A DNA stretch of 64,000 bases from Vulcanimicrobiota bacterium. Lineage in GTDB: Bacteria; Vulcanimicrobiota; Vulcanimicrobiia; Eremiobacterales; Eremiobacteraceae. Under the pieces are notes generated by a model. That model ran no database searches. It was not told where the DNA came from and worked only from the letters and a program-made list of their open reading frames with translations. Of the stretch, positions 39,488 to 52,048 are shown piece by piece (the stretch's first letter is position 1; the number at the start of each line of letters is the position of its first letter). The position numbers and the translations under genes are program-made. The stretch is taken from NCBI GenBank assembly GCA_963805945.1, contig CAWDVP010000004.1, positions 64,001 to 128,000 on the forward strand, in the 5' to 3' direction.

Positions 39488-40851
39488 TGCCGCTTTTCCC
39501 ACCATTCTTTGAACGTCTCGTCTGCCAAACGCGGCACCTCGCGCTGTTTCGCCCACGCGCCCAGCGGGCCAGGCCGCCAGCCGAGTTTCGCGAGCACGCC
39601 CGCACCCGTGCGCGCCAACCTCGTCGCGCGCCGATACTTGACCGCATCGCTCATCGCATCCGCCCACATCCCGAAGGCGGCGCGCTCGCTGCCCGAGCCG
39701 ACCGCTTTCTCGCTCACCGCTTTGTTGCGCAGGTGCACGAGCTGATGCGGCAGATCGATCTTGACCGGGCACTCCTCGCCGCACGCGCCGCACAGGCTCG
39801 AGGCGAACGGCAGTTCACCGGCCTTGTCGAGACCGAGCATCTGCGGCGTCTCGGTCGAGCCGATCGGCCCCGGATAGACCCAGCCGTACGCGTAGCCCCC
39901 GGCGCGGCGATAGATCGGACACACGTTCATGCACGCGCCGCAGCGGATGCAGTAGAGCGACTCGCGCGTCGCACGGTCTGCCATCACCTTGGTGCGGCCG
40001 GCGTCGATGATGATGCAGTACCACGTCTTGCCGTCGTCTGGCCCTAAGAAATGGTGCGTGTACACCGACAGCTTCTGGCCGGTCGCGGCGCGCGCGAGCA
40101 CGTGCAGGAACGGCGGCAGGTCCATGAGCCGCGGGATGATCTTCTCGATGCCCATGAGCGCGACGTACACCGGCGGCGCGGATGCCGAGAGCGCCTGATT
40201 GCCCTCGTTCTCGACGGTGACGACGGTGCCGGTCTCGGCGATCGCGAAATTGGCGCCGGTCATCCCGAGTTCGGCTTCCAGATAGCGCGTGCGCAGACGC
40301 GAGCGCGCGGCTTCGAGCAGCGCCTGCGGATCGTCCGTGTACGGGATGCCCAGCTTCTCGGTGAAGAGCTTGCCGATCTCTTGGCGCGACAGGTGCAGCG
40401 CCGGCGCGATGATGTGCGACGGCTTCTGGCCGGCGAGCTGCACGATGTACTCGCCGAGATCGGTCTCGACCGCGTCGATGCCGGCGGCCTCGAGCCGCTC
40501 GTTGAGCTCGAGCTCCTCCGAGAGCATCGACTTGCCTTTGACGACCGAATGCACGCCGTGCTTGCGACAGATGTCGAGGAAGTGCGCCGCGCCTTCTTCG
40601 GCGGTGCGCGCCCACAGCACGGTGCCGCCGCGCGCGCTGAACTGCTTCTCGAACTCGACGAGCAGCCAGTCGAGGTTGGCGATCGCGTATTCCTTGATCG
40701 CATGCACGCGCGCGCGCAGCTCCTGCCATGGCACCTGCTCTTGCGCGCGATGCTTGTCGTCGACGATGCGCGCCATGGTCGCCGGCATGCCGGGCGGACC
40801 GTGCGGATGCAGGAGCGCCGCGTGGACCGCCCGTTTGTCGTAGAGGCTCAC
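39484..40851 (-). CDS. lutB: Lactate utilization Fe-S protein B
   Basis: KGKSM, ETDLGEYI, CIRCGACMNVCP, SSLCGACGEECP. Confidence 0.94.
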   Translation of the reverse strand: MSLYDKRAVHAALLHPHGPPGMPATMARIVDDKHRAQEQVPWQELRARVHAIKEYAIANLDWLLVEFEKQFSARGGTVLWARTAEEGAAHFLDICRKHGVHSVVKGKSMLSEELELNERLEAAGIDAVETDLGEYIVQLAGQKPSHIIAPALHLSRQEIGKLFTEKLGIPYTDDPQALLEAARSRLRTRYLEAELGMTGANFAIAETGTVVTVENEGNQALSASAPPVYVALMGIEKIIPRLMDLPPFLHVLARAATGQKLSVYTHHFLGPDDGKTWYCIIIDAGRTKVMADRATRESLYCIRCGACMNVCPIYRRAGGYAYGWVYPGPIGSTETPQMLGLDKAGELPFASSLCGACGEECPVKIDLPHQLVHLRNKAVSEKAVGSGSERAAFGMWADAMSDAVKYRRATRLARTGAGVLAKLGWRPGPLGAWAKQREVPRLADETFKEWWEKRQ

Positions 40852-41612
40852 GTGGCGGCCAGCACTTGCGCGAGGTGCATCGTGCGGATGCCGGCGCTCG
40901 CGGGATCGCGCCGCAGCAGACCGTCGATCTGCATGAGACAGCTCGAATCGGCGGAGACGAGCACCTCTGCGCCCGTCGCGCGCACGTTGGCGCACTTGGC
41001 GTTGCCCATCGACGCCGACAGCTCGTCGAACTTGACGCTGAACAGGCCGCCGAAACCGCAGCACTCTTCGACCGCGGGCAGCTCGATAAGGGTGGCGTCT
41101 TTCACCGCGCGCAGCAGGCGCAGCGGCGCGTCGCCGACCTTGAGCTCGCGACGGCCGTGGCAGCCGTCGTGATAGGTGAGCGTGTGCGGGAAGCGCGCCC
41201 CGACGTCGATGACGCCGAGCGCTTCCACTAAGAACGTGGACAGCTCCCATACGCGCGCGCCGACTTCCGCGGCGAGCGAGCCTGGGTCGAGCGTCGGATA
41301 GAACACCTTGCACATGGACGCGCACGAGCCCGACGGCACGACGATCCATTCATAACCGTCGAACGTCTCGGCGAAATGTTGCGCGACTGGGCGGGCCTGG
41401 TCCCAGTGACCGGCGTTGAACGCCGGCTGGCCGCAGCAGGTCTGCTCGACCGGATAGCCGAGCGGTATGCCCAAGCGCTCGAACAGCGTGACCACGGACT
41501 TGCCGACGTCGGGATAGAGCAGATCGACGTAGCACGGCACGAAGAGCGCGACTCGATCTCCGGTCGCATAGGTCTTCTTCGTCTGCGGTAAGGCGGCGTC
41601 CATTGCGCGCAT
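40848..41612 (-). CDS. lutA: Lactate utilization protein A (CCG domains)
   Basis: CCGQPAFNAG, YHDGCH, CCGFGG, DSSCLMQI. Confidence 0.93.
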   Translation of the reverse strand: MRAMDAALPQTKKTYATGDRVALFVPCYVDLLYPDVGKSVVTLFERLGIPLGYPVEQTCCGQPAFNAGHWDQARPVAQHFAETFDGYEWIVVPSGSCASMCKVFYPTLDPGSLAAEVGARVWELSTFLVEALGVIDVGARFPHTLTYHDGCHGRRELKVGDAPLRLLRAVKDATLIELPAVEECCGFGGLFSVKFDELSASMGNAKCANVRATGAEVLVSADSSCLMQIDGLLRRDPASAGIRTMHLAQVLAAT

Positions 41613-41695
41613 GGCTTTTGTGGCGGCATCGCTTTCACCCGCTGTCGTCCCGGCCGGCAAATGCGCGGCGACGACTCTTCGACAACAGCGCGGGC

Positions 41696-42490
41696 ATGGC
41701 GGACTTCAAAGGTAAGAACATCATCATCACCGGCGGCGGCAGCGGCTTGGGCGCTGCGATGGCCATACATCTCGCTGCATTGGGCGGGCGGGTCATCGTG
41801 GCCGGGCGGCGCCCGGAGATGCTCGCGGAAACGGTTGCCGCGATCGAGACCGCAGGCGGCAAGGCTGACGCCATACCGACCGACGTCCGCGTGCCCGAAC
41901 AGGTGCAGGCGCTCGTCGACGGCGTGGTCAGCAAGCACGGCAGCGTCGATTGCCTGGTCAACAACGCCGCCGGCAACTTCATCGTGCGCGCGGAAGAGCT
42001 CTCGCCGAACGGCTGGAACGCGGTGATCAACATCGTGCTCAACGGCACGTTCTATTGCTCGCGCGCCGTGGGCAAGGCGATGATCGCCGCCGGTCATGGC
42101 GGTTCGATCCTCAACATCGTCGCGGCGTACGCGTGGACCGGTGGACCCGGCACGATCCATTCCGCGGCGGCCAAGGCGGGCGTCATCTCGATGACGCAAA
42201 CGCTAGCGGTGGAGTGGGGCCATCACGGCATCCGCGTGAACGCGCTGTGTCCGGGCGTCGTGAACACGCCGGGCGCCGCCGCGAAGCTCTTCCCGACCGA
42301 GGCGATCCGCGATCGCATCGCGCGGCGCGTGCCGCTCGGCCGGCTCGAGACGTCTGACGAAGTCGCTAAGGCAGCCGCATATCTGCTGTCCGACGATGCG
42401 TCCTATGTCAACGGCGCGGTGCTGGTGGCCGACGGCGGCATGTGGCTCGATCAGGGATTGCTCGCCGCAAACGCCCCCGAAGGCATGTAG
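41696..42490 (+). CDS. SDR oxidoreductase, 2,4-dienoyl-CoA reductase-like
   Basis: TGGGSGLG, NNAAGNF, HSAAAKAG. Confidence 0.88.
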   Translation: MADFKGKNIIITGGGSGLGAAMAIHLAALGGRVIVAGRRPEMLAETVAAIETAGGKADAIPTDVRVPEQVQALVDGVVSKHGSVDCLVNNAAGNFIVRAEELSPNGWNAVINIVLNGTFYCSRAVGKAMIAAGHGGSILNIVAAYAWTGGPGTIHSAAAKAGVISMTQTLAVEWGHHGIRVNALCPGVVNTPGAAAKLFPTEAIRDRIARRVPLGRLETSDEVAKAAAYLLSDDASYVNGAVLVADGGMWLDQGLLAANAPEGM

Positions 42491-42512
42491 GGGTCGACCT
42501 TTAGGTCGACCC
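42486..42512. repeat. REP family A copy, supplies the SDR stop codon
   Basis: TGTAGGGGTCGACCTTTAGGTCGACCC. Confidence 0.88.
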
Positions 42513-42516
42513 AGGA

Positions 42517-42535
42517 ATTGAGACCCATTCTCAAT
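42517..42535. promoter_or_regulatory. Putative Fur/Zur box
   Basis: ATTGAGACC-C-ATTCTCAAT, similar to the palindrome at 57384. Confidence 0.65.
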
Positions 42536-42581
42536 AAGAAGGCCTGAAGAACCTTGCCCTTCGCGCCGATATTGTGGATAT

Positions 42582-43196
42582 ATGAGTGACCTCGCGCTGC
42601 GGATGACCCGCGGCCTCACCCCGATGTACGTCTGCCTGGTGGTGCTGGGCAGCATCGTCGCGCACTTGGCATCCGAATTCTTCTCCATGGGTTCCGAGGC
42701 GAGCGACATCGCGCTCTCGCCCAAGCATCTGTATCTCGGCGTCGCCGCGCTCGTCTGTGCGGCGGTCGTCGTGCTGCAAGCGCGTTCGCTACTGCGATCT
42801 TCCGAAGGCGCGCGCGACCTCAAGCGCCGGCTTCATCTCGGTCTGGAAGCGCTGCCCTTGCGCGGACGCGGCCTCGCGTTCTTGACGCTTACCGCAGGAC
42901 TCCAGCTCGCCATCGGCCTCGCGACGCAGTACGGCGAGGGCTGCCCGTTCTGCGGCCACGACGTGGCAGCGGGCGTCCTCGGCGCGCTGCTCACCGTCAT
43001 CGTGCTCGCGTTTGCGGGACGCTTCATCGGCGCCCGCTTGCCGTCAATCGCCGCGGCCATCGCTGCCCTCTTCATCGAACCTTCGACCAACGCACACGCG
43101 TTGTCATCGCTACGCGACGTCGCGTCGCCGGCGTTCTTCCGCTTCATCTGGTTCAGCCAGCTCTACAACCGCCCTCCGCCTTCCCTCTCGATCTAA
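42582..43196 (+). CDS. Membrane leader protein 1 (CxxC + C-terminal RPPP), putative arrest peptide
   Basis: About 4 TM, CPFCGH, ends NRPPPSLSI; directly upstream of a TonB-dependent receptor. Confidence 0.75.
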   Translation: MSDLALRMTRGLTPMYVCLVVLGSIVAHLASEFFSMGSEASDIALSPKHLYLGVAALVCAAVVVLQARSLLRSSEGARDLKRRLHLGLEALPLRGRGLAFLTLTAGLQLAIGLATQYGEGCPFCGHDVAAGVLGALLTVIVLAFAGRFIGARLPSIAAAIAALFIEPSTNAHALSSLRDVASPAFFRFIWFSQLYNRPPPSLSI

Positions 43197-43224
43197 CGGC
43201 CGAAGCACTCGGCCGCGCCCAGGA

Positions 43225-43249
43225 CGGTCGAGTGAATTCGACCGCTCCA
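43225..43249. repeat. REP family B copy in the leader-receptor spacer
   Basis: CGGTCGAGTGAATTCGACCGCTCCA. Confidence 0.8.
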
Positions 43250-43268
43250 TTCATTTTGAGAGGGAGTC

Positions 43269-45638
43269 ATGTCATACCATCTCTTCAGCCGCCCGCTGTG
43301 GGCGGCGCTAGCGCTCGCCGGCGTGCTCGCTATGCCGTCGGTCGGCGCGTGCGCCGGAGCGTTTCTGACCGGCTCGGTGACGCTCGACGGCAAACCCGCC
43401 GCCGGTGCGACGGTCACCGCCACGGGCAACAACCTCGTGCAGACGAAGCGCACCGATGCACAGGGACGCTTCAGCTTCAGCACGCTCCAACCGGGCGCGT
43501 ACGCGCTCGACGCGGCGTGGAACGATCGGCGCGCGCATCGCTCGATCGAGCTGTCGGCGAGCGGCGCCGATGTCTCGCTGGAACTTGATCCGAAGAACAT
43601 CGGCAGCATCAAAGTCACCGCGTCGAGCGCCGCGCCCATCAGGGGCGCCGGCACCGACGTCACGCTCAACTCGACGATGCTCACCCGCACGCCGGCCGGC
43701 GGCAGCTTCCCGGAATTGCTCGTGCAGTTGCCCGGCGCGGCGCGCGGGGCCAACGGCGTGGTCCATATCAACGGCGATCACGGCGACATCAACTACATCG
43801 TCGACGGGGCCTCCATCCCGCAAGCGCTCAACCGCGTCATCGGCACCGAGTTCGACGCGAACGACGTCGCGTTCGTCGACGTGCTGCAGGGCGCGTATCC
43901 CGCGCAATACGGAGAGCGTTTCGCCAGCGTGCTCAACATCAGCACGCGCACGGGCACCGGGCCGCCCGGCGCGATCCTCGATCTCTCCGGCGGCTCGTAC
44001 GCGAACTACGATTCGACCGTCGGGTACCACGGCCCGGTCGGTGCGGGCTCACTGGTGCTGGCGGTCCGTGACGGACGCTCGAGCTACGGCCTGGACCCGC
44101 CCGATCTGACCTCGCTTCACAACGACGCGAGCGATGCCAGCCAGTTCCTCCGCTACACGGTGCCTGTCGGCCACGACTACCTCAACTTCACCATGTCGCA
44201 TTCGTATCAGACGTTCCAGGTCCCGATCGACGTGCTCGGCGGCCAGCCCGCGAGCAGCGACGACAACGAGACACAGAACGACACCTTTGCGACGCTGCAG
44301 TACCGCCGCGCCATCGCGGACCGCGGTTCGCTGTCGCTGGGCGCGGCGTATAAGCGCTCGCAGATCCGCGACTTCGGCGATCCGCTGCCCGATTGGGCGT
44401 TCGGCATAAACACGTGGGTCGGCAGCGGCGGGCTGCCGTCGGACTGCTTCAACGCGCTCACGATCACCAATTACGCCAACAGCACGTGCGCCTACACGCT
44501 TGCCGACAACCGCACCGCCACCGATTACAAGTTCAATCTCGACGACGCGCTGCGCGGCGGCGCGCACGAGGTGCGCTGGGGCGCGCTTTATGACGTGACG
44601 CTCGTGCCCAAGCTCTACGACATCACGCTGCAACCGGGCAACTATCTCGCACCGATGTTCACGCCGGGGACGCCGCTCGCGCCGTATCCGGTGATCGACA
44701 ACGCGCCGAACGTCGGCCACACCGAAGCCGCATACCTTCAAGACAGCTGGCGCATGGGCCAGGCGTATCAGCTCGACTACGGGCTGCGCGTCGACGCGTT
44801 CCAGATCTTTTCGGATCAGTTCGACCAGGGCTTTTCCATGTTCAGCCCGCGCATCAAGCTGACGCGCTTCTTCAGTCCGCGCGCGAGCGCGTACGCCTAC
44901 TACGGCCGCTTCTTCACGCCGTTCTCGTTCGAGAACGTGTCGCCGAGCGCGGCGTACCTGCTCAACCTGCCGCTTCAGCCGACGCTCGCTCAGTTCGACC
45001 TCAAGCCGCAGCGCGACTCCGATTACGAGATCGGCGGCCACTTGCCGCTCGGCAAGGGCGATCTCGGCTTGCGCGTGATGCAGAAAGACGCGACTGATCT
45101 CATCGACGACACGCAAGTAGGCGTGACGCTGCTGCACCAGGACATCAACTACCAGCTCGGGCGGATAGCCACGCAGTCGGCGTACTACCAGCAGACGCTT
45201 GCGCACGGCGGTCGTTTTTATGTGACCGGCAACCACACGTATTCGGTCAACAAAGGCTGTGAGACGCAGCTGTTGGCGCCGTGCTTCGGCTCGTCGACGG
45301 ATTGGACGCCAGCCGACCACATGCAGGCGTGGGGCGCCACCTCAGGGATCGTGCTCAACGACGCGCGCGGCGGCTGGTTCTCGATCGACGGCGAGTACGG
45401 GACCGGGCTATCGTCAGCGGGTTGCTCCGCCGCGACGCCGGGCTTCTGCGAATACACGCCGCATCTCACGTTCAACGCGGTGAAGGGCTTCGCGATCGGA
45501 CCGAAGACCGTGGCGACGGTGGGGATCGGCAACCTGCTCAACCATCAGTTCTTCATCACGTATCTCAACGCGCAGGGCAATCATTACTACCCGCCGCTCA
45601 CCGTGAACGTCGGCCTGCGCTTCGGCGTAAGCCGCTGA
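43269..45638 (+). CDS. TonB-dependent receptor 1 with N-terminal carboxypeptidase-regulatory-like domain
   Basis: Signal peptide, plug motifs YIVDG and GAYPAQYG, barrel strands, NLLN, terminal VGLRF. Confidence 0.9.
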   Translation: MSYHLFSRPLWAALALAGVLAMPSVGACAGAFLTGSVTLDGKPAAGATVTATGNNLVQTKRTDAQGRFSFSTLQPGAYALDAAWNDRRAHRSIELSASGADVSLELDPKNIGSIKVTASSAAPIRGAGTDVTLNSTMLTRTPAGGSFPELLVQLPGAARGANGVVHINGDHGDINYIVDGASIPQALNRVIGTEFDANDVAFVDVLQGAYPAQYGERFASVLNISTRTGTGPPGAILDLSGGSYANYDSTVGYHGPVGAGSLVLAVRDGRSSYGLDPPDLTSLHNDASDASQFLRYTVPVGHDYLNFTMSHSYQTFQVPIDVLGGQPASSDDNETQNDTFATLQYRRAIADRGSLSLGAAYKRSQIRDFGDPLPDWAFGINTWVGSGGLPSDCFNALTITNYANSTCAYTLADNRTATDYKFNLDDALRGGAHEVRWGALYDVTLVPKLYDITLQPGNYLAPMFTPGTPLAPYPVIDNAPNVGHTEAAYLQDSWRMGQAYQLDYGLRVDAFQIFSDQFDQGFSMFSPRIKLTRFFSPRASAYAYYGRFFTPFSFENVSPSAAYLLNLPLQPTLAQFDLKPQRDSDYEIGGHLPLGKGDLGLRVMQKDATDLIDDTQVGVTLLHQDINYQLGRIATQSAYYQQTLAHGGRFYVTGNHTYSVNKGCETQLLAPCFGSSTDWTPADHMQAWGATSGIVLNDARGGWFSIDGEYGTGLSSAGCSAATPGFCEYTPHLTFNAVKGFAIGPKTVATVGIGNLLNHQFFITYLNAQGNHYYPPLTVNVGLRFGVSR

Positions 45639-45665
45639 TGTAGGGGTCGACCTTTAGGTCGACCC
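45639..45665. repeat. REP family A copy, contains the stop of the convergent MauE gene
   Basis: TGTAGGGGTCGACCTTTAGGTCGACCC. Confidence 0.88.
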
Positions 45666-46094
45666 TTCGACCGGCCTCCGCCACGACCACCACATCAGAT
45701 AGATCGCGGGGATGATCGCCGCGCCGTCGCGCGCGATCGTCCACCAGGTTACCGGGTCGGTCTCGCGTGGCCCGAAGCAGCCGCACGGAGTCGGGATGCC
45801 GCGCACCACCACGGACGCGAGCGCCGCGATGAACACGAGCAGCACTGCGACCGCCACCACTGAGACGATGCGCAACTGCCAGCCGAGCAGCAGGTACACG
45901 CCCAGCACTATCTCAAGCAACGGCAAAGCGATGGCGGCGAAGCCGACGAATTGCGCCGGCAGATCGAGCCGGAAGGCGACGATCGTGGACCCGAGATCCG
46001 GCGCATGGCCCATCTTGAGGACGCCGGCGGCGATGAACACCAGCCCGACGATGATCCGGGCGATGAGGGGCAGCACGTGAAGAAGACGAGCCAA
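45654..46094 (-). CDS. MauE/DoxX family redox membrane protein
   Basis: ARIIVGLVFIAAGVLK, LPLLEI, CGCFG; start 46094 or 46076. Confidence 0.88.
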   Translation of the reverse strand: MARLLHVLPLIARIIVGLVFIAAGVLKMGHAPDLGSTIVAFRLDLPAQFVGFAAIALPLLEIVLGVYLLLGWQLRIVSVVAVAVLLVFIAALASVVVRGIPTPCGCFGPRETDPVTWWTIARDGAAIIPAIYLMWWSWRRPVEGST

Positions 46095-46721
46095 GCATCA
46101 CAACCTTCCGCGAAGCCGACGACGGGACCGCGATGGGGCACCATTTTGCCAGTCATCGCGGGCGTCCTCGTCGTCATCGCGATCGCCGTATATGCGATCA
46201 CGCAATCCCACAAGCTGCCGAGCGCGGCCGTCGAGCCGAACGCGCTGCCGTCGGTGCCGCCGCCGATCAAAGTCGGCGCGCGTGCGCCCGCGTTCTCGGT
46301 GCAGACGCCGCTCGGCGCCGTCTCCAACGACACGTTCGCCGGCAAACCGTACATGGTCGAGCTGTTCGCCACATGGTGCCCGCATTGCCAGCGCATGACG
46401 GCCGTGCTGCGCTCGCTGCGCGCGAAACTGCCGGAGTCGCGCTTCGGCATGGTCTCCGTCACCGGCTCGCCGTACGCCGCAGGCTCGACGCAGGGTGCCC
46501 CCATCGCCGAGAGTCAAGCGGACGTCGACGCGTTCGACAAGTACTTCAACGTCACATGGCTGTCCGTGTGGGATCCGCAACTCACGACGGCGGCGGCGTT
46601 CGGGCTCAACGGCTTTCCGACGATCTTCATCGTGGACGCCAAGGGCACGATTGTCTATACTGCAAGCGGTGAGCTCCCCGAGGCGACGCTGCTCGCCGCC
46701 GCCCGCAAGGCAGGCGCCTGA
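46077..46721 (+). CDS. Membrane-anchored TlpA/redoxin thioredoxin
   Basis: One TM, APAF, FATWCPHC, GFPTIFIVD. Confidence 0.88.
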   Translation: MKKTSQASQPSAKPTTGPRWGTILPVIAGVLVVIAIAVYAITQSHKLPSAAVEPNALPSVPPPIKVGARAPAFSVQTPLGAVSNDTFAGKPYMVELFATWCPHCQRMTAVLRSLRAKLPESRFGMVSVTGSPYAAGSTQGAPIAESQADVDAFDKYFNVTWLSVWDPQLTTAAAFGLNGFPTIFIVDAKGTIVYTASGELPEATLLAAARKAGA

Positions 46722-46801
46722 CCTTAGAATCCGCTGAGATGTCCACCACGCGGAGCACGGCCACAGGGGGCGCGCGCCCTACGGCCTAATGTATATGCAT
46801 C

Positions 46802-47473
46802 ATGAGGAACCGGGAGGTCTGCTGGCTGTTGATCGGAGCGGTGGCACTTGGCGCATCGCTCGCGGGCCACGCCGTGCAACTCGCGATCGAGTCCGCTCAC
46901 CTCTTCGGCGGCGTGCCTGCGCGCTACAGCCACGTGCTGCAGACACCGATCTCGCTCATCATGTTCGGCGCACTCGTCGTCGCCGCGCTGTTCATCGCGC
47001 GCGGTATCCTCGAAAGCGTCTATGACGAATTCGGCGGTGCCGACTGGCTCGTGCCGGCGCTCGATGCCGTCGCGGCGATCGCGCCCGGCCGCCTCATCGC
47101 ATTGGTCGTCGGTCTGCAGCTCGCGTCGCTCATCGGCGGCGAGCTGACCGAGCAAGCGCTGTCGTCCTACGGCGCATTCGGCTTGGGAGCCATCTTCGGC
47201 CCCGGTCATCTCAGCGCGCCATTCGTGCACGTCGCCATCGGCACGCTCGCCGCGTGGCTGCTGCTCGCGTTCGCGCGCGCCGTCTGCGCTCGCGTTGCGG
47301 ATATCGCTCGCTTCGCGCGCTCGCTCATCGCGTGGGTCTCCCGGCCCGCGCGCGTCCGTTGTGCTCCGGCGCTGCGCGTCCTCGCGCTCGCCTCGGAGTC
47401 ACCCGCACCACCGCTGCTGGCGCGACACATCGCCAGCCGTCCGCCTCCGGCCGCCGCTACGCTTGTAGCATAG
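46802..47473 (+). CDS. Membrane leader protein 2 (His-containing, C-terminal RPPP), putative arrest peptide
   Basis: About 4 TM, shares GLQLA with leader 1, ends HIASRPPPAAATLVA; directly upstream of a TonB-dependent receptor. Confidence 0.72.
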   Translation: MRNREVCWLLIGAVALGASLAGHAVQLAIESAHLFGGVPARYSHVLQTPISLIMFGALVVAALFIARGILESVYDEFGGADWLVPALDAVAAIAPGRLIALVVGLQLASLIGGELTEQALSSYGAFGLGAIFGPGHLSAPFVHVAIGTLAAWLLLAFARAVCARVADIARFARSLIAWVSRPARVRCAPALRVLALASESPAPPLLARHIASRPPPAAATLVA

Positions 47474-47525
47474 GCGGCCAAATCCGGCTTCCCGCCTTTT
47501 GGCCGCCTCCCCATAGGGTGGAGGT

Positions 47526-49793
47526 ATGGTCTTGCGTTTTCGTATTTTCTTTTTCATTTCCGTCGCATGCGCCGCGGCGCTCGCAGCGGTCGGCTCATTC
47601 GCACCGGCGTCCGCGAGCACGCTCGGCGCGATCCGCGGCACCGTCTACGATTCCGCCGGGCATCCGCTGCAGCACGCCAAGGTCGTCATCGTGGCCGGCG
47701 TCGGCACCAAGGACAGCACGGCGACCGATGCGTCCGGACGCTACATCTTCCCGCGCGTCGAGTTCGATACGTACACGGTGACCGTCACCGCGGCGGGCCT
47801 GCCGCCGAACAGCCAGATCGTGACCGTCGCGAGCGGCACCGTCACGGTACTTGATTTCCACCTCTCGGAGAAGAAGCTCGCCAGCGTCGTCACCGTCGCC
47901 AAAGCCGGGCACCCGGTGAGCGTGACCGTGATGACGCCGCAGATGATCCAGACGCTGCCGAGCAACTTCAAGCTCGCGAGCGTCACCGAGACGGTGCCCG
48001 GGGTCGTGCCGTTCTCGTACGACGAACCGGTGGTGCGCGGCTTCCACGGCGTCGCGTACTACATCGACGGCATCCCGATCCCGCAGACATCGTCGTCCGC
48101 GTTCGCCGAGGTCCTCGATCCGCGCGATATCGGCTCGGTGGAGGTCTACACAGGCTCGTTCCCCGCCGAGTACGGCGGCAGCCGCCAGGGCGGCGTGGTC
48201 AACATCATCTCCAAACGGCCGAGCGGGAACGGCGGCGACATCACGCTCACCGGCGGCAACTACGCCACCGGCGCCACGCAGCTCAGCGAATCGTTCGGCG
48301 GTCCGACCCTCAAAGCGTACGTATCGCTCAACTTCGACCGCACCGACCGCGGCCTCGATTCACCGACCGCGCAGCCCATCCATGACGCCGCGAGCCAATC
48401 GAACGAATTCATGCGGCTCACATATGTCCCCGACAGCCGCGACTCATGGGCGTTGCATTTCTCCAATCTGTTCTCGACGTTCCAGATCCCGATCGACACG
48501 AATCCGACCAGCGTGAGCTTCGCGCCGCAGGGAAGCGACGACTTGCAGTACGAGTACGCCCGCTATGCGAGCATCGTCTACAACCGCCTGAGCGCGGACG
48601 GCCAAGGCTACCTCGAGATCTCGCCCTGGTATAACCGCAGCCAGGTGAAGTTCTTCCCGGATCCGACCAACGATCTCGCGAGCGCCGCCATGGCGTCGAC
48701 CTTCCAGGATCGGGTCGGCACGTACTACGGGTTGACCGGGGCCTACTTCCGCAGCTGGACGAAGGACAATCTGAAGATCGGCTTCACCGGCGCGGTCGAG
48801 GACTTCACCAGCGCGTTCAACATCCAGTTCATCGATCCCACGACGATGATGTTGCAGCAGTTCAACGACAACGCGGCGCAGACCGGCACGAACTTCGGCA
48901 TCTACGCCGAAGACAAGATGATCCTGTCACCCATGTTCACCACGAACATCGGCCTGCGCTACGACCGCTCGACGGGTTTCACCGACGGCAACCAGGTGAG
49001 TCCGCGCTTCGAGCTCGATTACCTCGCCAATCCCAAGGAGACGGTCCATTTCTATTACGGACGCTTGTACGCGGCGCCGGCGCTCGAAGACACGCGGCGC
49101 AGCGCCGTCGTCATCGGCGGCGGCTCAGGCTTGCCGGTGTACGACCTCAAGCCCGAGACCGATTCGATCTACGAGTTCGGCTTTTCGCATCAGGTGACGC
49201 AGACGTCGAGATGGTACATCAACTATTGGGCGCGCTCCGTCGCCAACGTGCTCGACACGACCCAGATCGGCTCGACGCCGATCTTCACGATCTTCAATTC
49301 GACCTCCGGTCGCGCGCAAGGCATCGAGTTCAGCTACAGCGGGCAGGCGCAGAATCTCAACAGCTACTTCGTGTCGTATGGCCTCTCCGAGAGCCTTGCG
49401 TCGGGCATCTCGGGCGGCACGTTCCTGTTCTCTCCTGATCAGCTTCAGGGCGCCAATGGCTTCGCCCCGGAGGACCACGACCAGACTAACACGCTCAACA
49501 CCGCGTACACGTGGCGGCTGTCGAAGGACCGCCAGACCTGGACCTCGCTGCAGGCGATCTACGGCAGCGGCTATCCCGTGCAGTTCGAGAACGGACCGGG
49601 CAGGCTGCCCGCGCACTGGGAGCTCAACGCGTCGTACGGGCGCTTCGCGACGGGCGGGCATCTCGGCTACCAGCTGCAGGCGACCAACTTGACCAACAAC
49701 ATCTATCTCATCAAACTCAACAACGGCTTCAACACGACCCAATACGCGCGCGGCTTCCAGCTCACGGCGCAGATCACCGCGCCGATCCACTAG
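47526..49793 (+). CDS. TonB-dependent receptor 2 (paralog of receptor 1)
   Basis: Signal peptide, YYIDG, GSFPAEYGG, VVNIISK, DLKPE, NLTN. Confidence 0.9.
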   Translation: MVLRFRIFFFISVACAAALAAVGSFAPASASTLGAIRGTVYDSAGHPLQHAKVVIVAGVGTKDSTATDASGRYIFPRVEFDTYTVTVTAAGLPPNSQIVTVASGTVTVLDFHLSEKKLASVVTVAKAGHPVSVTVMTPQMIQTLPSNFKLASVTETVPGVVPFSYDEPVVRGFHGVAYYIDGIPIPQTSSSAFAEVLDPRDIGSVEVYTGSFPAEYGGSRQGGVVNIISKRPSGNGGDITLTGGNYATGATQLSESFGGPTLKAYVSLNFDRTDRGLDSPTAQPIHDAASQSNEFMRLTYVPDSRDSWALHFSNLFSTFQIPIDTNPTSVSFAPQGSDDLQYEYARYASIVYNRLSADGQGYLEISPWYNRSQVKFFPDPTNDLASAAMASTFQDRVGTYYGLTGAYFRSWTKDNLKIGFTGAVEDFTSAFNIQFIDPTTMMLQQFNDNAAQTGTNFGIYAEDKMILSPMFTTNIGLRYDRSTGFTDGNQVSPRFELDYLANPKETVHFYYGRLYAAPALEDTRRSAVVIGGGSGLPVYDLKPETDSIYEFGFSHQVTQTSRWYINYWARSVANVLDTTQIGSTPIFTIFNSTSGRAQGIEFSYSGQAQNLNSYFVSYGLSESLASGISGGTFLFSPDQLQGANGFAPEDHDQTNTLNTAYTWRLSKDRQTWTSLQAIYGSGYPVQFENGPGRLPAHWELNASYGRFATGGHLGYQLQATNLTNNIYLIKLNNGFNTTQYARGFQLTAQITAPIH

Positions 49794-49855
49794 CAAGTGC
49801 GGGCGTCCGGCGCTGCAAAGGCCTGGTGACGCCGCATTTTCTCTAGGAGATCGAG

Positions 49856-50722
49856 ATGGAGCGAAGCGTCTTTCTTCGGGGTTTGAGCGCCGGCGTGGCG
49901 GGAGCATCTGTTTGCGGATTGGCACCGCTCGTGGCGCGTGCGGCCGATCATGGCGATGCGCCGCATTGGACCTACGGCGGGGGTGAGGACGGCCCCGCGC
50001 ATTGGGGCGACCTCGCGCCCGACTTCCACACCTGCTCGATCGGCCAGCAGCAATCGCCGGTCAATATCAGCGACGTCGCCACCGGCGCGATCGGCGACAT
50101 CCAGCGTTCGTATCGCACCTCGCCGCTGCGCATCATCAACAATGGCCACACCATCCAGGTCGATTACGCCGCCGGCAGCACGCTCACGCTGCGCGGCCGG
50201 ATGTGGGAGATCGTCCAGTTCCACTTCCACACGCCGAGCGAGCACACGTACCAGGGCGCGCACTACGACATGGAGCTGCACATCGTGCATCAGAACACCG
50301 CGAAACATGTGTGCGTCCTCGGCGTCTTCATGAAGGCCGGCACGGCGAACGCCGAGATCCAGAAGATATGGGACGCGATGCCGATGAAGGAGGGGCCCGA
50401 GCAAACGGTGAGCGGCGTCAGCGTCAACGTCGGCGCGCTCGTGCCTGCGACGAAGGTCTACTACAACTATCTCGGTTCGTTCACCACGCCGCCGTGCACT
50501 GAGAACGTCGAATGGCTGGTGCTGCGCGATCCGATCCAGGTCTCAGCCGCGCAGATCGCGCGCTTCAAAGCGGCGATCCCGATGAACGCGCGGCCGGTGC
50601 AGCCGGTCAACCAGCGGTTGGTCATCAGAACCTGTCTACTGCGACGCGTTTGCCTGGTTGTGCAGGTACGCGTCGATGAACGACTGGATCTTGGCCTGAT
50701 CGATCGTGTCGAGCGTCCCTAA
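49856..50722 (+). CDS. Alpha-carbonic anhydrase with Tat-like signal (true stop may be near 50640)
   Basis: HWTY, QSPVNI, NNGHT, QFHFHTPSEH, ELHIVH, GSFTTPPCTE. Confidence 0.93.
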   Translation: MERSVFLRGLSAGVAGASVCGLAPLVARAADHGDAPHWTYGGGEDGPAHWGDLAPDFHTCSIGQQQSPVNISDVATGAIGDIQRSYRTSPLRIINNGHTIQVDYAAGSTLTLRGRMWEIVQFHFHTPSEHTYQGAHYDMELHIVHQNTAKHVCVLGVFMKAGTANAEIQKIWDAMPMKEGPEQTVSGVSVNVGALVPATKVYYNYLGSFTTPPCTENVEWLVLRDPIQVSAAQIARFKAAIPMNARPVQPVNQRLVIRTCLLRRVCLVVQVRVDERLDLGLIDRVERP

Positions 50723-51303
50723 TCGCGTCCACGCGGTCACCGCGATCTTGTGCTTCATGCCTGGATACGGCGCGACGATGACCGCTTGGCCGGATTCTTC
50801 AGCGCTCTGGACGTCTGCCGGCAGCGGCTGGAGCTGGCTCACCGGGACCAGTTTCGAGTCGTAGGTATAGGCGATCTGGTAGAGCGCACCCGCGATGTCC
50901 GGACAGTTGCAGTTGTACTGCAGCAGCACGTTGCCGTGCTCGAGCAGATGGACTTGCACCCACTTGGGCAGCGGCGTCGGGCTGTTGAACGAATCGTTGA
51001 ACGCCTCTTTGTGCGGCCCGGACGTCGGCGGGTCGGAGTTGTAGGCGAAGTCGGTGGACTCGCCAGCATCGAAATGCTTGTGCCCCTGCGACGGGTAGTG
51101 CGTGCCCAGGAATTTGAGCATGATGACCGTCCCCGCCGAGGCGCTCGCCGCGGCAGCGGTTGCGCCCGACGGCGCCGGGGATGCGCTCGCATCGCTGGCG
51201 GATTTGGTGCAGCCGCCGACGGCAAGCGCGAGGGCGATTGCGCCGGCCGCTGCGATGGCCTGTAGTGCCCGAGCGAAGCTCGGGTTTTTTCTTTCGTCGT
51301 CAT
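50636..51303 (-). CDS. DUF3105-family lipoprotein
   Basis: Lipobox VGG-C, DPPTSGPH, VHLLEHG, TAW. Confidence 0.8.
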
Positions 51304-51983
51304 TGCGTCGAATTCGCCTGGTTCGCAAGATACGCGTTGATGAAGCGGATGATCGTCGCCTGATCGAACGCGTCGAGCCACTCGAGCCGCGTCCAGGCGG
51401 TGAGCGCGATCTTGTGCTTCATGCCCGGATACGGCGCGACGATGACGCCGGTGCCGCGCTCTTCGACGCCCTGCGCCAAGTCAGCCGTGAAACCGGTCGC
51501 GCCCGGCGGCAGCTGCCGGTTGTTGTACTCGGCGGCGAGCTGCGCCAATGCGCCTGCGATATCGGGGCACTGGCAGCTGTACTGCATCAACACGTTGCCG
51601 TGCTCGAGCAAGTGGACCTGCATGTACTTGGGAAGCGGCTGCATGCTGATGAGCTCCTGGGAGAACTGCTCGAGGTGCATGCCCGAGGTCGGCGGATCGG
51701 AGCTGTAATGGAAGGTCGAGACGCCGGCGTCATCGGGTCCCTTCTTATCGTGACCTTGATGGCCTTGCGATTTGAAGAACAGGCCCGGCGTCTCGCGGGG
51801 TCCCGGCGACGCGGTCGACGTGGCCGCGGGCGAAGGGCTTGCGCTGACCGCCGACGGCGGGTTGCGGTGCGAGATGCTCATGACGATGAGCGCGACGATG
51901 GCGATGACGACGAAGGCGGCGAACGCGAGCGTCGCCATGCGGGCGGTCTGGTCGGCCGCCGGCGTGGTGGATTTCTTCGACAT
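51300..51983 (-). CDS. DUF3105-family membrane-anchored protein
   Basis: N-terminal TM, DPPTSGMH, VHLLEHG, TAW. Confidence 0.82.
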   Translation of the reverse strand: MSKKSTTPAADQTARMATLAFAAFVVIAIVALIVMSISHRNPPSAVSASPSPAATSTASPGPRETPGLFFKSQGHQGHDKKGPDDAGVSTFHYSSDPPTSGMHLEQFSQELISMQPLPKYMQVHLLEHGNVLMQYSCQCPDIAGALAQLAAEYNNRQLPPGATGFTADLAQGVEERGTGVIVAPYPGMKHKIALTAWTRLEWLDAFDQATIIRFINAYLANQANSTQ

Positions 51984-52048
51984 GGCGCGGCCTATTCGCG
52001 GGGATTCAGGGCGACGCCTGTAGCGGATGCGCCATCAGCGGCATCGCA

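Follow-up and report, generated by a model that had tools for sequence, protein, structure and literature searches.

A candidate R-P-P-P ribosome-arrest switch in a four-helix membrane protein, predicted to expose the Shine-Dalgarno sequence of a downstream receptor gene in Eremiobacteraceae

Arrest peptides of the RAPP type stall the ribosome when the third codon of the motif occupies the P site and the fourth the A site, and their arginine is irreplaceable (PMC12992588, accessible text). According to the same text, replacing alanine by proline in the RAPP of ApdP leaves near wild-type arrest in Bacillus subtilis (2.4 versus 1.9 units), the effect of this exchange is partial in Escherichia coli and in ApdA, and random-library screens recovered RxPP with x = G, A, S or P. 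Open reading frames (ORFs) with RAPP or RGPP, nearly all of them with signal peptides, are enriched upstream of TonB-dependent receptor genes; the 2025 survey, as that text describes it, searched RAPP and RGPP only (PMC12992588). Two related systems involve DUF2946 proteins. CutF of Rhodobacter capsulatus regulates cutO by unfolding a stem-loop that covers the Shine-Dalgarno sequence (SD), according to the accessible parts of PMC9973294 and bioRxiv 10.1101/2025.02.05.636593, and CruR of Bordetella pertussis (Bp2923, with RAPP) controls the TonB-dependent transporter BfrG through Rho, according to those of PMC9426467. The present analysis concerns a locus of comparable layout in a bacterium of the phylum Vulcanimicrobiota (family Eremiobacteraceae). 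In a 64,000-nucleotide stretch of contig CAWDVP010000004.1, called the window below and numbered from its first letter, gene F2, for a membrane protein with R-P-P-P near its end, precedes a gene for a TonB-dependent-receptor-like protein. From the sequence, a RAPP-like (here R-P-P-P) ribosome-arrest switch is proposed in the C-terminus of this four-helix inner-membrane protein, with a rough probability of 60%, and arrest-controlled exposure of the SD of the receptor gene is a well-supported prediction. An RPPP or RAPP motif by itself is no proof of arrest. The locus comprises the following features.

46802..47473, forward strand: gene F2, coding for a 223-residue four-helix membrane protein (ORF, homologues, AlphaFold model), the 'leader 2' of an earlier annotation
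47408..47449, forward strand: codons for F2 residues 203-216 (PPLLARHIASRPPP), the best-conserved stretch of the protein in a 28-sequence alignment
47438-47449, forward strand: RPPP codons of F2, residues 213-216 (ORF translation)
47471..47473, forward strand: TAG stop codon of F2, whose last two bases begin the 5' arm of a hairpin called 2:3 below
47532..49793, forward strand: receptor gene 2, TonB-dependent-receptor-like, with CarboxypepD_reg, Plug and barrel domains (Pfam; start from aligned relatives)

The likeness to ApdA, ApdP and the RQH-type peptides (Sakiyama 2021; Fujiwara 2024, 2025) lies in a small membrane or secreted protein that has an R-x-P-P core close to its C-terminus and is encoded upstream of its target and in the same direction. 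Homologues of the present proteins in sister bacterial families carry RAPP itself. The differences from the RAPP arrest peptides are that the core here is RPPP and that its carrier is a multi-pass membrane protein conserved over its full length. With CutF, as its reports describe it in their accessible parts, the locus shares a C-terminal PPP stall motif, a stem-loop over the SD of the next gene that a pause would melt, membrane targeting, and a periplasmic metal-binding motif, here putative, distant from the stall site. CutF, however, belongs to DUF2946 and is a small secreted protein that has a signal peptide and CxxxC, whereas the proteins here have 204-223 residues, four helices and no Pfam family; the anti-SD consists here of the stall-site codons themselves, whereas CutF uses a separate intergenic arm; and the downstream gene codes for a TonB-type receptor instead of a multicopper oxidase. 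The points in common with CruR, within the accessible text on it, are a RAPP-type motif a few residues before the C-terminus, a conserved spacing from sensing site to stall site and a TonB-dependent transporter gene downstream. CruR differs in acting by Rho-dependent termination in a 162-nucleotide spacer with an unstructured C-rich region, against 58 structured nucleotides here, and in having its CxxC 45 residues before RAPP, against about 70 in F1, a paralogue of F2 presented below, and no CxxC in F2. The DUF2946-type combination (CxxC or CxxxC about 45 residues before the stall, a length of about 120-145 residues and a signal peptide) is not found in these proteins. The DUF2946 hidden Markov model (PF11162), run against the whole genome at E <= 10, misses both F1 and F2, and its sole match lies in an unrelated place on contig C2. 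In its proposed mode of action the switch resembles CutF, CruR and the RAPP arrest peptides, but its carrier proteins do not belong to DUF2946. No mention of this Eremiobacterota protein family was found in the accessible part of the literature on arrest peptides or, in titles and the beginnings of abstracts, in that on the phylum combined with TonB-dependent.

The evidence begins with the protein. The original prediction, an annotation made earlier from the letters of this DNA, had treated 'leader 2' as a short leader; its codons are really the last 12 of the 223-residue ORF. A protein search returned 27 homologues of 58-93% identity, nearly all of 223 residues and from Eremiobacteraceae-type records. 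In the resulting 28 sequences, conservation peaks in the 14 residues up to and including RPPP, and the seven residues beyond the motif vary. R213, P214, P215 and P216 are invariant, as are A211, L206, A207 and P203, and the pattern across the order is L-x-x-x-[ILF]-A-[NS]-R-P-P-P; the family is present in 26 of the 32 genomes of the order. The AlphaFold model (predicted local distance difference test, 82) has long hydrophobic helices at 2-31, 47-74, 95-120 and 138-163, four helices that can stand for the localisation signal of RAPP-like arrest peptides. The charge distribution alone suggests an N-in, C-in topology. A fold search of the model against the PDB gave no match at E <= 0.001, and in the Protein Atlas the upstream proteins fall in unnamed clusters, with no named one among them. 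Conserved polar residues precede the last long helix (H23, H44, Q106, E114, E117 and G133), with a nearly fixed spacing of 77-82 residues from G133 to R213, and the family alignments contain no conserved CxxC in F2. In one genome (G013, contig C1; loci L008/L028) a frameshift or TGA has broken the F2 homologue into frames of 221 and 125 residues, and the RPPP tail, the hairpin and the SD downstream remain intact despite the split.

The same window holds a second module about 4 kb upstream, with the following features.

42582..43196, forward strand: gene F1, coding for a 204-residue membrane protein, the paralogue of F2 (profile comparison, folding) and the earlier 'leader 1'
43170-43181, forward strand: RPPP codons of F1, in N-R-P-P-P followed by four residues to the end
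43182-43190, forward strand: anti-SD in the F1 tail (folding)
43257..43271, forward strand: SD region and ATG of receptor gene 1, paired with the F1 tail codons (pairing probability 1.0)

F1 and F2 are paralogues by hhalign (probability 93.5%, E 2.4e-7, 138 columns), and profiles were needed to show this: the BLASTP alignment of the two proteins is limited to the RPPP stretch (E 0.35). Neither protein falls into a Pfam family at E <= 0.01. F1, present in 27 of the 32 genomes of the order, keeps W190, N196, R197 and P198-200 invariant in 27 sequences, in the pattern W-x-x-x-L-[FYA]-N-R-P-P-P. Ahead of its last long helix, about 70 residues before RPPP, stands the polar motif G-E-G-C-P-F-C-G-H-D, and the distance from D127 to R197 is 68-71 residues, exactly 69 in 20 of the 27 sequences. 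The C-terminus of F1 (43149-43181) also reads W-x6-R-P-P-P and thus resembles, but no more than that, the arrest motif of SecM (W-I-x4-G-I-R-A-G-P); the Trp of F1 stands one residue nearer to the Arg.

A conserved R-[A/G]-P-P-like core near the C-terminus is a property of both families, RPPP being invariant in the 28 F2 and 27 F1 sequences and followed by 0-11 variable residues. A profile search with F1 of 1.84 billion cluster representatives gave 144 clusters, of which 117 carry RPPP, and 2 RAPP, within their last 24 residues (119 of 144 with R[PA]PP); many of the 25 without the motif are fragments. The F2 profile, scanned over 401 genomes of the phylum, found the family in 176: 26 of 29 genomes in the bacterial family of the window, with 144 of 297 and 4 of 5 genomes in two further families, and elsewhere in the phylum one weak match (1 of 16 genomes of one family), with none in the other families. 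In the sister families, 17 of the 20 loci fetched end in G-[E/G]-R-A-P-P plus 4-11 residues, the canonical RAPP, and three lack the motif. The tallies include three unpublished genomes (G015, G025 and G031; loci L017, L024, L058, L027, L039 and L056), from which alone come the shortest tails, of one residue (L024) and none (L058); nothing else in the analysis hinges on these three. Five ORF hits without an RPPP tail were dropped: the split-gene fragments L008/L028, the end-cut ORFs L045 and L010, and L027. A wider motif census on crude ORF calls is contaminated by wrong-frame ORFs and unusable for motif avoidance. Among such crude calls, a 485-codon frame outside the window (genome G000, contig C2, 368429-369884, forward strand) has R-A-P-P four residues from its end.

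The second line of evidence is the RNA. The segment 47438-47545 folds to -49.6 kcal/mol, against -37.5 ± 3.3 kcal/mol in 200 dinucleotide shuffles, none of which reaches the native value (z -3.72). In ermC-type attenuation, 1:2 and 3:4 give way to 2:3 when a ribosome stalls on segment 1, and the SD is thereby released. The original prediction had proposed such a four-segment scheme behind the RPPP codons, and all its complementarities exist. Segment 1 (47449-60), which does start in the third Pro codon (last base of CCG 47447-49), matches segment 2 (47465-79) over 7+5 base pairs with an ATA bulge and a GCTT loop; 47472-82 matches 47498-508 in 11 perfect base pairs around a 15-nucleotide loop; and segment 3 (47505-10) matches the SD (47520-25) in six base pairs, one of them G.U. 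The elements of the predicted fold are the following.

47441..47452, forward strand: strand of helix P1 that serves as anti-SD, within the Pro codons and the codon that follows, with core CCUCC at 47444-47448
47516..47529, forward strand: 3' strand of helix P1, containing the SD GGAGG at 47520-47524
47456..47469, forward strand: small hairpin of five base pairs, GCUAC/GUAGC, in the tail codons, the inner part of 1:2 (folding)
47472..47508, forward strand: hairpin 2:3 of 11 base pairs, central arm of a three-way junction, with its 3' arm overlapping a second anti-SD (folding, conservation)
47505..47510, forward strand: segment 3, the local anti-SD, predicted to be a partner of the SD only once a terminating ribosome melts 2:3

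Pair probabilities were taken from equilibrium folding of 47378-47552 in three states: free, stalled (P site on the codon of Pro2 or Pro3) and terminating.

P1, CCUCC:GGAGG (mean): 0.98 free, 0.00 stalled, 0.48 terminating
1:2, inner hairpin: 1.00 free, 0.00 stalled, 0.00 terminating
1:2, outer stem: 0.00 free, 0.00 stalled, 0.00 terminating
2:3 hairpin: 0.98 free, 0.89-0.94 stalled, 0.00 terminating
3:4 stem: 0.00 free, 0.18-0.28 stalled, 0.46 terminating
SD unpaired: 0.00 free, 0.10-0.14 stalled, 0.01 terminating

Given the probabilities of P1, the small hairpin and 2:3, the predicted ground state is a three-way junction closed by pairing of the Pro codons with the SD. The Pro codons, and not segment 3 as first supposed, hold the SD in free RNA. 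The OFF state once assigned to 1:2 + 3:4 comes to -30.6 kcal/mol, against -49.6 kcal/mol for the minimum free energy, and both the outer 1:2 stem and 3:4 are absent from the free ensemble. Hairpin 2:3 dominates with and without a stalled ribosome and is lost only when the ribosome terminates; such dominance, whatever the ribosome does, was the refuting condition set with the original prediction, and by it the four-segment scheme does not stand up in silico. What survives of the scheme in these computations is the ON state, with 2:3 present and the SD released. The broader idea that stalling exposes the SD holds up as well, through conservation, covariation and constrained folding, and the same three lines bear out the claim that locus 1 follows this logic with a different RNA; what falls is the specific exchange of 1:2 + 3:4 for 2:3. 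At locus 2, opening the ribosome-binding site (RBS; -15 to +5) costs 17.1 kcal/mol in free RNA, 10.0-10.6 when stalled and 17.7 when terminating. The values at locus 1 are 15.1, 8.1 and 10.3 kcal/mol.

Within the genus of the window, seven distinct sequences, with proteins 64-93% identical, could be aligned. Between 47466 and 47507, 39 of 42 columns are invariant, a stretch that takes in the stop codon together with the two arms of 2:3 and the greater part of its loop. Paired cells amount to 91.4% for P1, 92.2% for 2:3 and 94.3% for the small tail hairpin (47456-47469), in which one A-U has become G.U. Pairing potential persists in 81.6% of the cells of the 1:2 outer stem, a point in favour of the four-segment scheme, as are the facts that 1:2 alone reaches -22.3 kcal/mol, is transcribed first and could form transiently, and that the predicted stalled state contains 2:3. 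However, the 1:2 pairs are largely G.U and show no compensatory change; segments 2 and 3 are invariant, and the sequence of segment 1 is kept in only two of the seven (the window and its closest relative, L059). The 3:4 pairing in the register first proposed is found in 76.2% of cells, its column 83:97 pairing in one sequence of seven; segment 3 is CCACC in the relatives and pairs there in a different register, with the SD's GGUGG half. A scan of metagenomes added three loci, two of them identical to a genome locus, and did not improve the covariation within the genus. The 15-nucleotide loop of 2:3 (47483-47497) is nearly as invariant as its stem, and it may make a tertiary contact or have a binding partner, because a plain clamp hairpin needs no fixed loop. 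The hairpin was also considered as a repeat element and rejected: counting both strands, the 2.3-Mb genome has 12 occurrences of its 10-mer arms, roughly the number estimated from base composition alone, and this is the sole place where they come as a pair. An Rfam scan of 40000-52000 at E <= 1 gave no match.

The downstream gene completes the module. Its start is probably TTG 47532, seven nucleotides past GGAGG, where aligned relatives have ATG, TTG or GTG followed by CGT; the ATG at 47526, the start favoured originally, is in frame but only one nucleotide past the SD, and is less likely. The spacer from the F2 stop to this start has 58 nucleotides, almost wholly structured. Receptor gene 1 starts at 43269, downstream of F1, and both receptors consist of CarboxypepD_reg, Plug and TonB-barrel domains, with a mutual identity of 26%. 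CarboxypepD_reg, with Plug where the sequence sufficed, is found in the gene behind the motif in 17 of 20 sampled loci. In the other three (L010, L025 and L030) this gene codes for an exported protein of about 304 residues with no Pfam match. By computation, then, F2 lies directly upstream of its receptor gene and in the same direction, and the RNA masking the SD would be opened by a ribosome that stalls.

From these elements a mechanism can be proposed. In free mRNA, the computed pairing of the receptor SD with the Pro codons (47441-52 with 47516-29) closes the three-way junction. A ribosome held on the motif, its P site occupied by codon 3 and its A site by codon 4, would bury the anti-SD, leaving 2:3 intact and the SD free, and translation of the receptor would rise. 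A ribosome that reaches the stop codon would melt 2:3, after which segment 3 or the re-exposed Pro codons would cover the SD again; as the SD would be re-covered upon termination, only a paused ribosome would open it. The length of the pause might be set by the nascent protein.

Whether this arrangement is shared was assessed at 55 distinct loci from the order and 17 RAPP loci from sister families. The SD core pairs with the segment between motif and stop at p >= 0.8 in 21 of 27 F1, 19 of 28 F2 and 13 of 17 RAPP loci, 53 of 72 in total. The background consisted of 76 same-strand gene pairs from the genome of the window, taken from crude ORF calls and having an SD and spacers of 20-130 nucleotides. 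There, 6 of 76 SDs are sequestered including both loci described here, and 4 of 74 without them. The median RBS opening cost of the motif loci is 15.3-15.7 kcal/mol free, 7.6-8.4 with the motif masked and 9.9-13.4 with a terminating ribosome; a ribosome on the motif about halves it. In the background the median is 10.1 kcal/mol, the median drop under a mask at the corresponding position is 0.03, and a drop of at least 5 occurs in 4 of 76 pairs. When tails and SDs were swapped among 51 loci (L029, L031, L057 and L058, with doubtful downstream starts, were dropped), the cognate duplexes averaged -18.7, a value reached in none of 5000 permutations, against -13.7 ± 0.4 for permuted partners; locus 2 scores -19.0 against -14.0 (rank 2 of 49).

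Covariation points the same way. In 11 F1 sequences, the anti-SD:SD helix has 94.7% of its cells paired, against 28-39% in slid controls, and none of 500 shuffles reaches the score; three of the seven pairs change on both sides (e.g. AU 8, GC 2, CG 1). Support from the F2 helix is weaker: in nine sequences 86.7% of cells are paired, against 34-52% when slid, and 4-8 of 500 shuffles reach the observed values. The F2 pair beside the stop codon is CG in four sequences and UA in four, and the stop codon lies in a hairpin arm in other genera too. SD flanks that vary together with matching tails indicate, at the level of sequence comparison, repeated co-change. Across families the anti-SD sits in the motif codons or one or two codons beyond. 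In 38 of 40 loci its core lies at a distance of 0-17 nucleotides from the first Pro base, and most F1 loci keep it at nucleotides 12-15, with tails ranging from three to nine codons. The distance of the anti-SD is fixed relative to the motif, not to the stop codon. CCU accounts for 33% of codons at motif positions 2-3 and for 14% of Pro codons elsewhere in these genes.

The best-surviving alternative is plain translational coupling without regulated arrest, in which any ribosome ending the membrane-protein gene melts the anti-SD:SD helix, RPPP/RAPP is kept for a function of the protein (e.g. as a cytoplasmic binding motif) and the CCNCC codons have been co-opted. In favour of coupling, sequestration of the SD by the 3' end of the upstream gene is the sole part actually demonstrated. 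A terminating mask lowers the opening cost by at least 5 kcal/mol in 13 of 27 F1 and 6 of 17 RAPP loci, and the membrane proteins are conserved throughout (mean column identity 45-51%), so that they are more than disposable leaders. Coupling fits less well with the offset of the anti-SD, which is fixed from the motif and variable from the stop, and with the finding that no more than 19 of 40 cores lie inside the terminating footprint. In five of six loci of the window's genus, moreover, the terminating mask raises the opening cost above that of the free state, which fits segment 3 as a possible back-up anti-SD after melting of 2:3. The motif alternates between RPPP and RAPP alone, both of them experimentally arrest-competent cores, and always lies 0-13 residues from the C-terminus. 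Collectively, coupling alone appears unlikely.

Several observations weigh against the arrest switch itself. At locus 2 the stalled mask leaves the SD still mostly paired, in weak alternative helices, including a G.U-rich one with the first receptor codons. Compared with other windows of the gene, the Pro-codon:SD duplex of this locus comes no higher than rank 22 of 184, and the duplex is unremarkable in four of five genus relatives (rank 28/82 to 86/185), the fifth, L006, ranking 4/180. No compensatory change is seen in any helix among the seven sequences of the genus, 19 of the 72 loci fall below the 0.8 threshold, and the genome encodes EF-P. The folding is an equilibrium treatment that ignores co-transcriptional order and trailing ribosomes. 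Finally, related loci are kin and counts overstate their independence, so that the family-wide numbers overstate significance.

Control at the level of transcription, in which a stalled ribosome would protect the mRNA against Rho or an intrinsic terminator, with a secondary part for the RNA helices, has a precedent in CruR, a RAPP protein ahead of a TonB-dependent transporter that acts via Rho (PMC9426467, accessible text), and could coexist with a translational mode. The short and almost fully structured spacer is nevertheless unlike that of cruR, a terminator and promoter scan found nothing between 47473 and 47532, and the covarying anti-SD:SD pairing points to translation initiation; transcriptional control is judged improbable. 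In the spacer of locus 1, a weak terminator-like hairpin with a T-rich run lies at 43230-43247, just 5' of the SD of receptor 1.

The ermC-type attenuator is very improbable in the light of the folding and conservation given above, and it differs further from its model in having no drug-dependent short leader, no predicted 1:2/3:4 ground state and the stall site itself as partner of the SD.

The surroundings offer hints of another kind. Between the two modules lie a gene for a MauE/DoxX membrane protein and one for a redoxin/thioredoxin-like protein (45654-46094, reverse strand, and 45951-46721, forward strand), and downstream of module 2 are an alpha-type carbonic anhydrase gene (49856-50722) and two DUF3105 genes; these neighbours hint at periplasmic thiol or metal chemistry. 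In the genus of the window, F1 and F2 stand in tandem, each with one receptor gene, and in other genera (L009-L012, L015-L019, L021-L024) they are divergent neighbours a few hundred bases apart.

For the arrest switch, it is tempting to ask what would be sensed. The His and Glu residues of F2, or the Cys-x-x-Cys-Gly-His-Asp of F1, may bind a periplasmic ligand, perhaps a metal, as has been proposed for CutF and CruR; any ligand is conjecture. A ligand at the site before the last membrane helix would then alter the pulling force on the nascent chain while the ribosome stands on R-P-P-P or R-A-P-P, a fixed distance of about 70-80 residues downstream of that site. The extended proposal, that the members of a class-wide and previously undescribed four-helix family sense a periplasmic ligand, probably a metal, co-translationally, with a three-state mRNA device, is put forward tentatively, as possible rather than likely. 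In such a device the stall codons would hold the SD in free mRNA, the SD would be open in the stalled state, and in the terminating state the freed arm of the stop-codon hairpin would re-cover it, so that the receptor would be switched on by a paused ribosome alone and not by a passing one.

If the arrest reading is true, control of metal-type uptake receptors by stall peptides would reach beyond the Proteobacteria of CutF and CruR into an uncultured soil phylum and would extend to an unrelated carrier protein, and a natural RAPP-to-RPPP swap would have taken place inside one protein family. The layout is unusually compact in that the stall codons are themselves the anti-SD, which makes it directly testable, since synonymous recoding would split the effect of the peptide from that of the RNA. 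Two families of hypothetical proteins would thereby gain a testable regulatory role.

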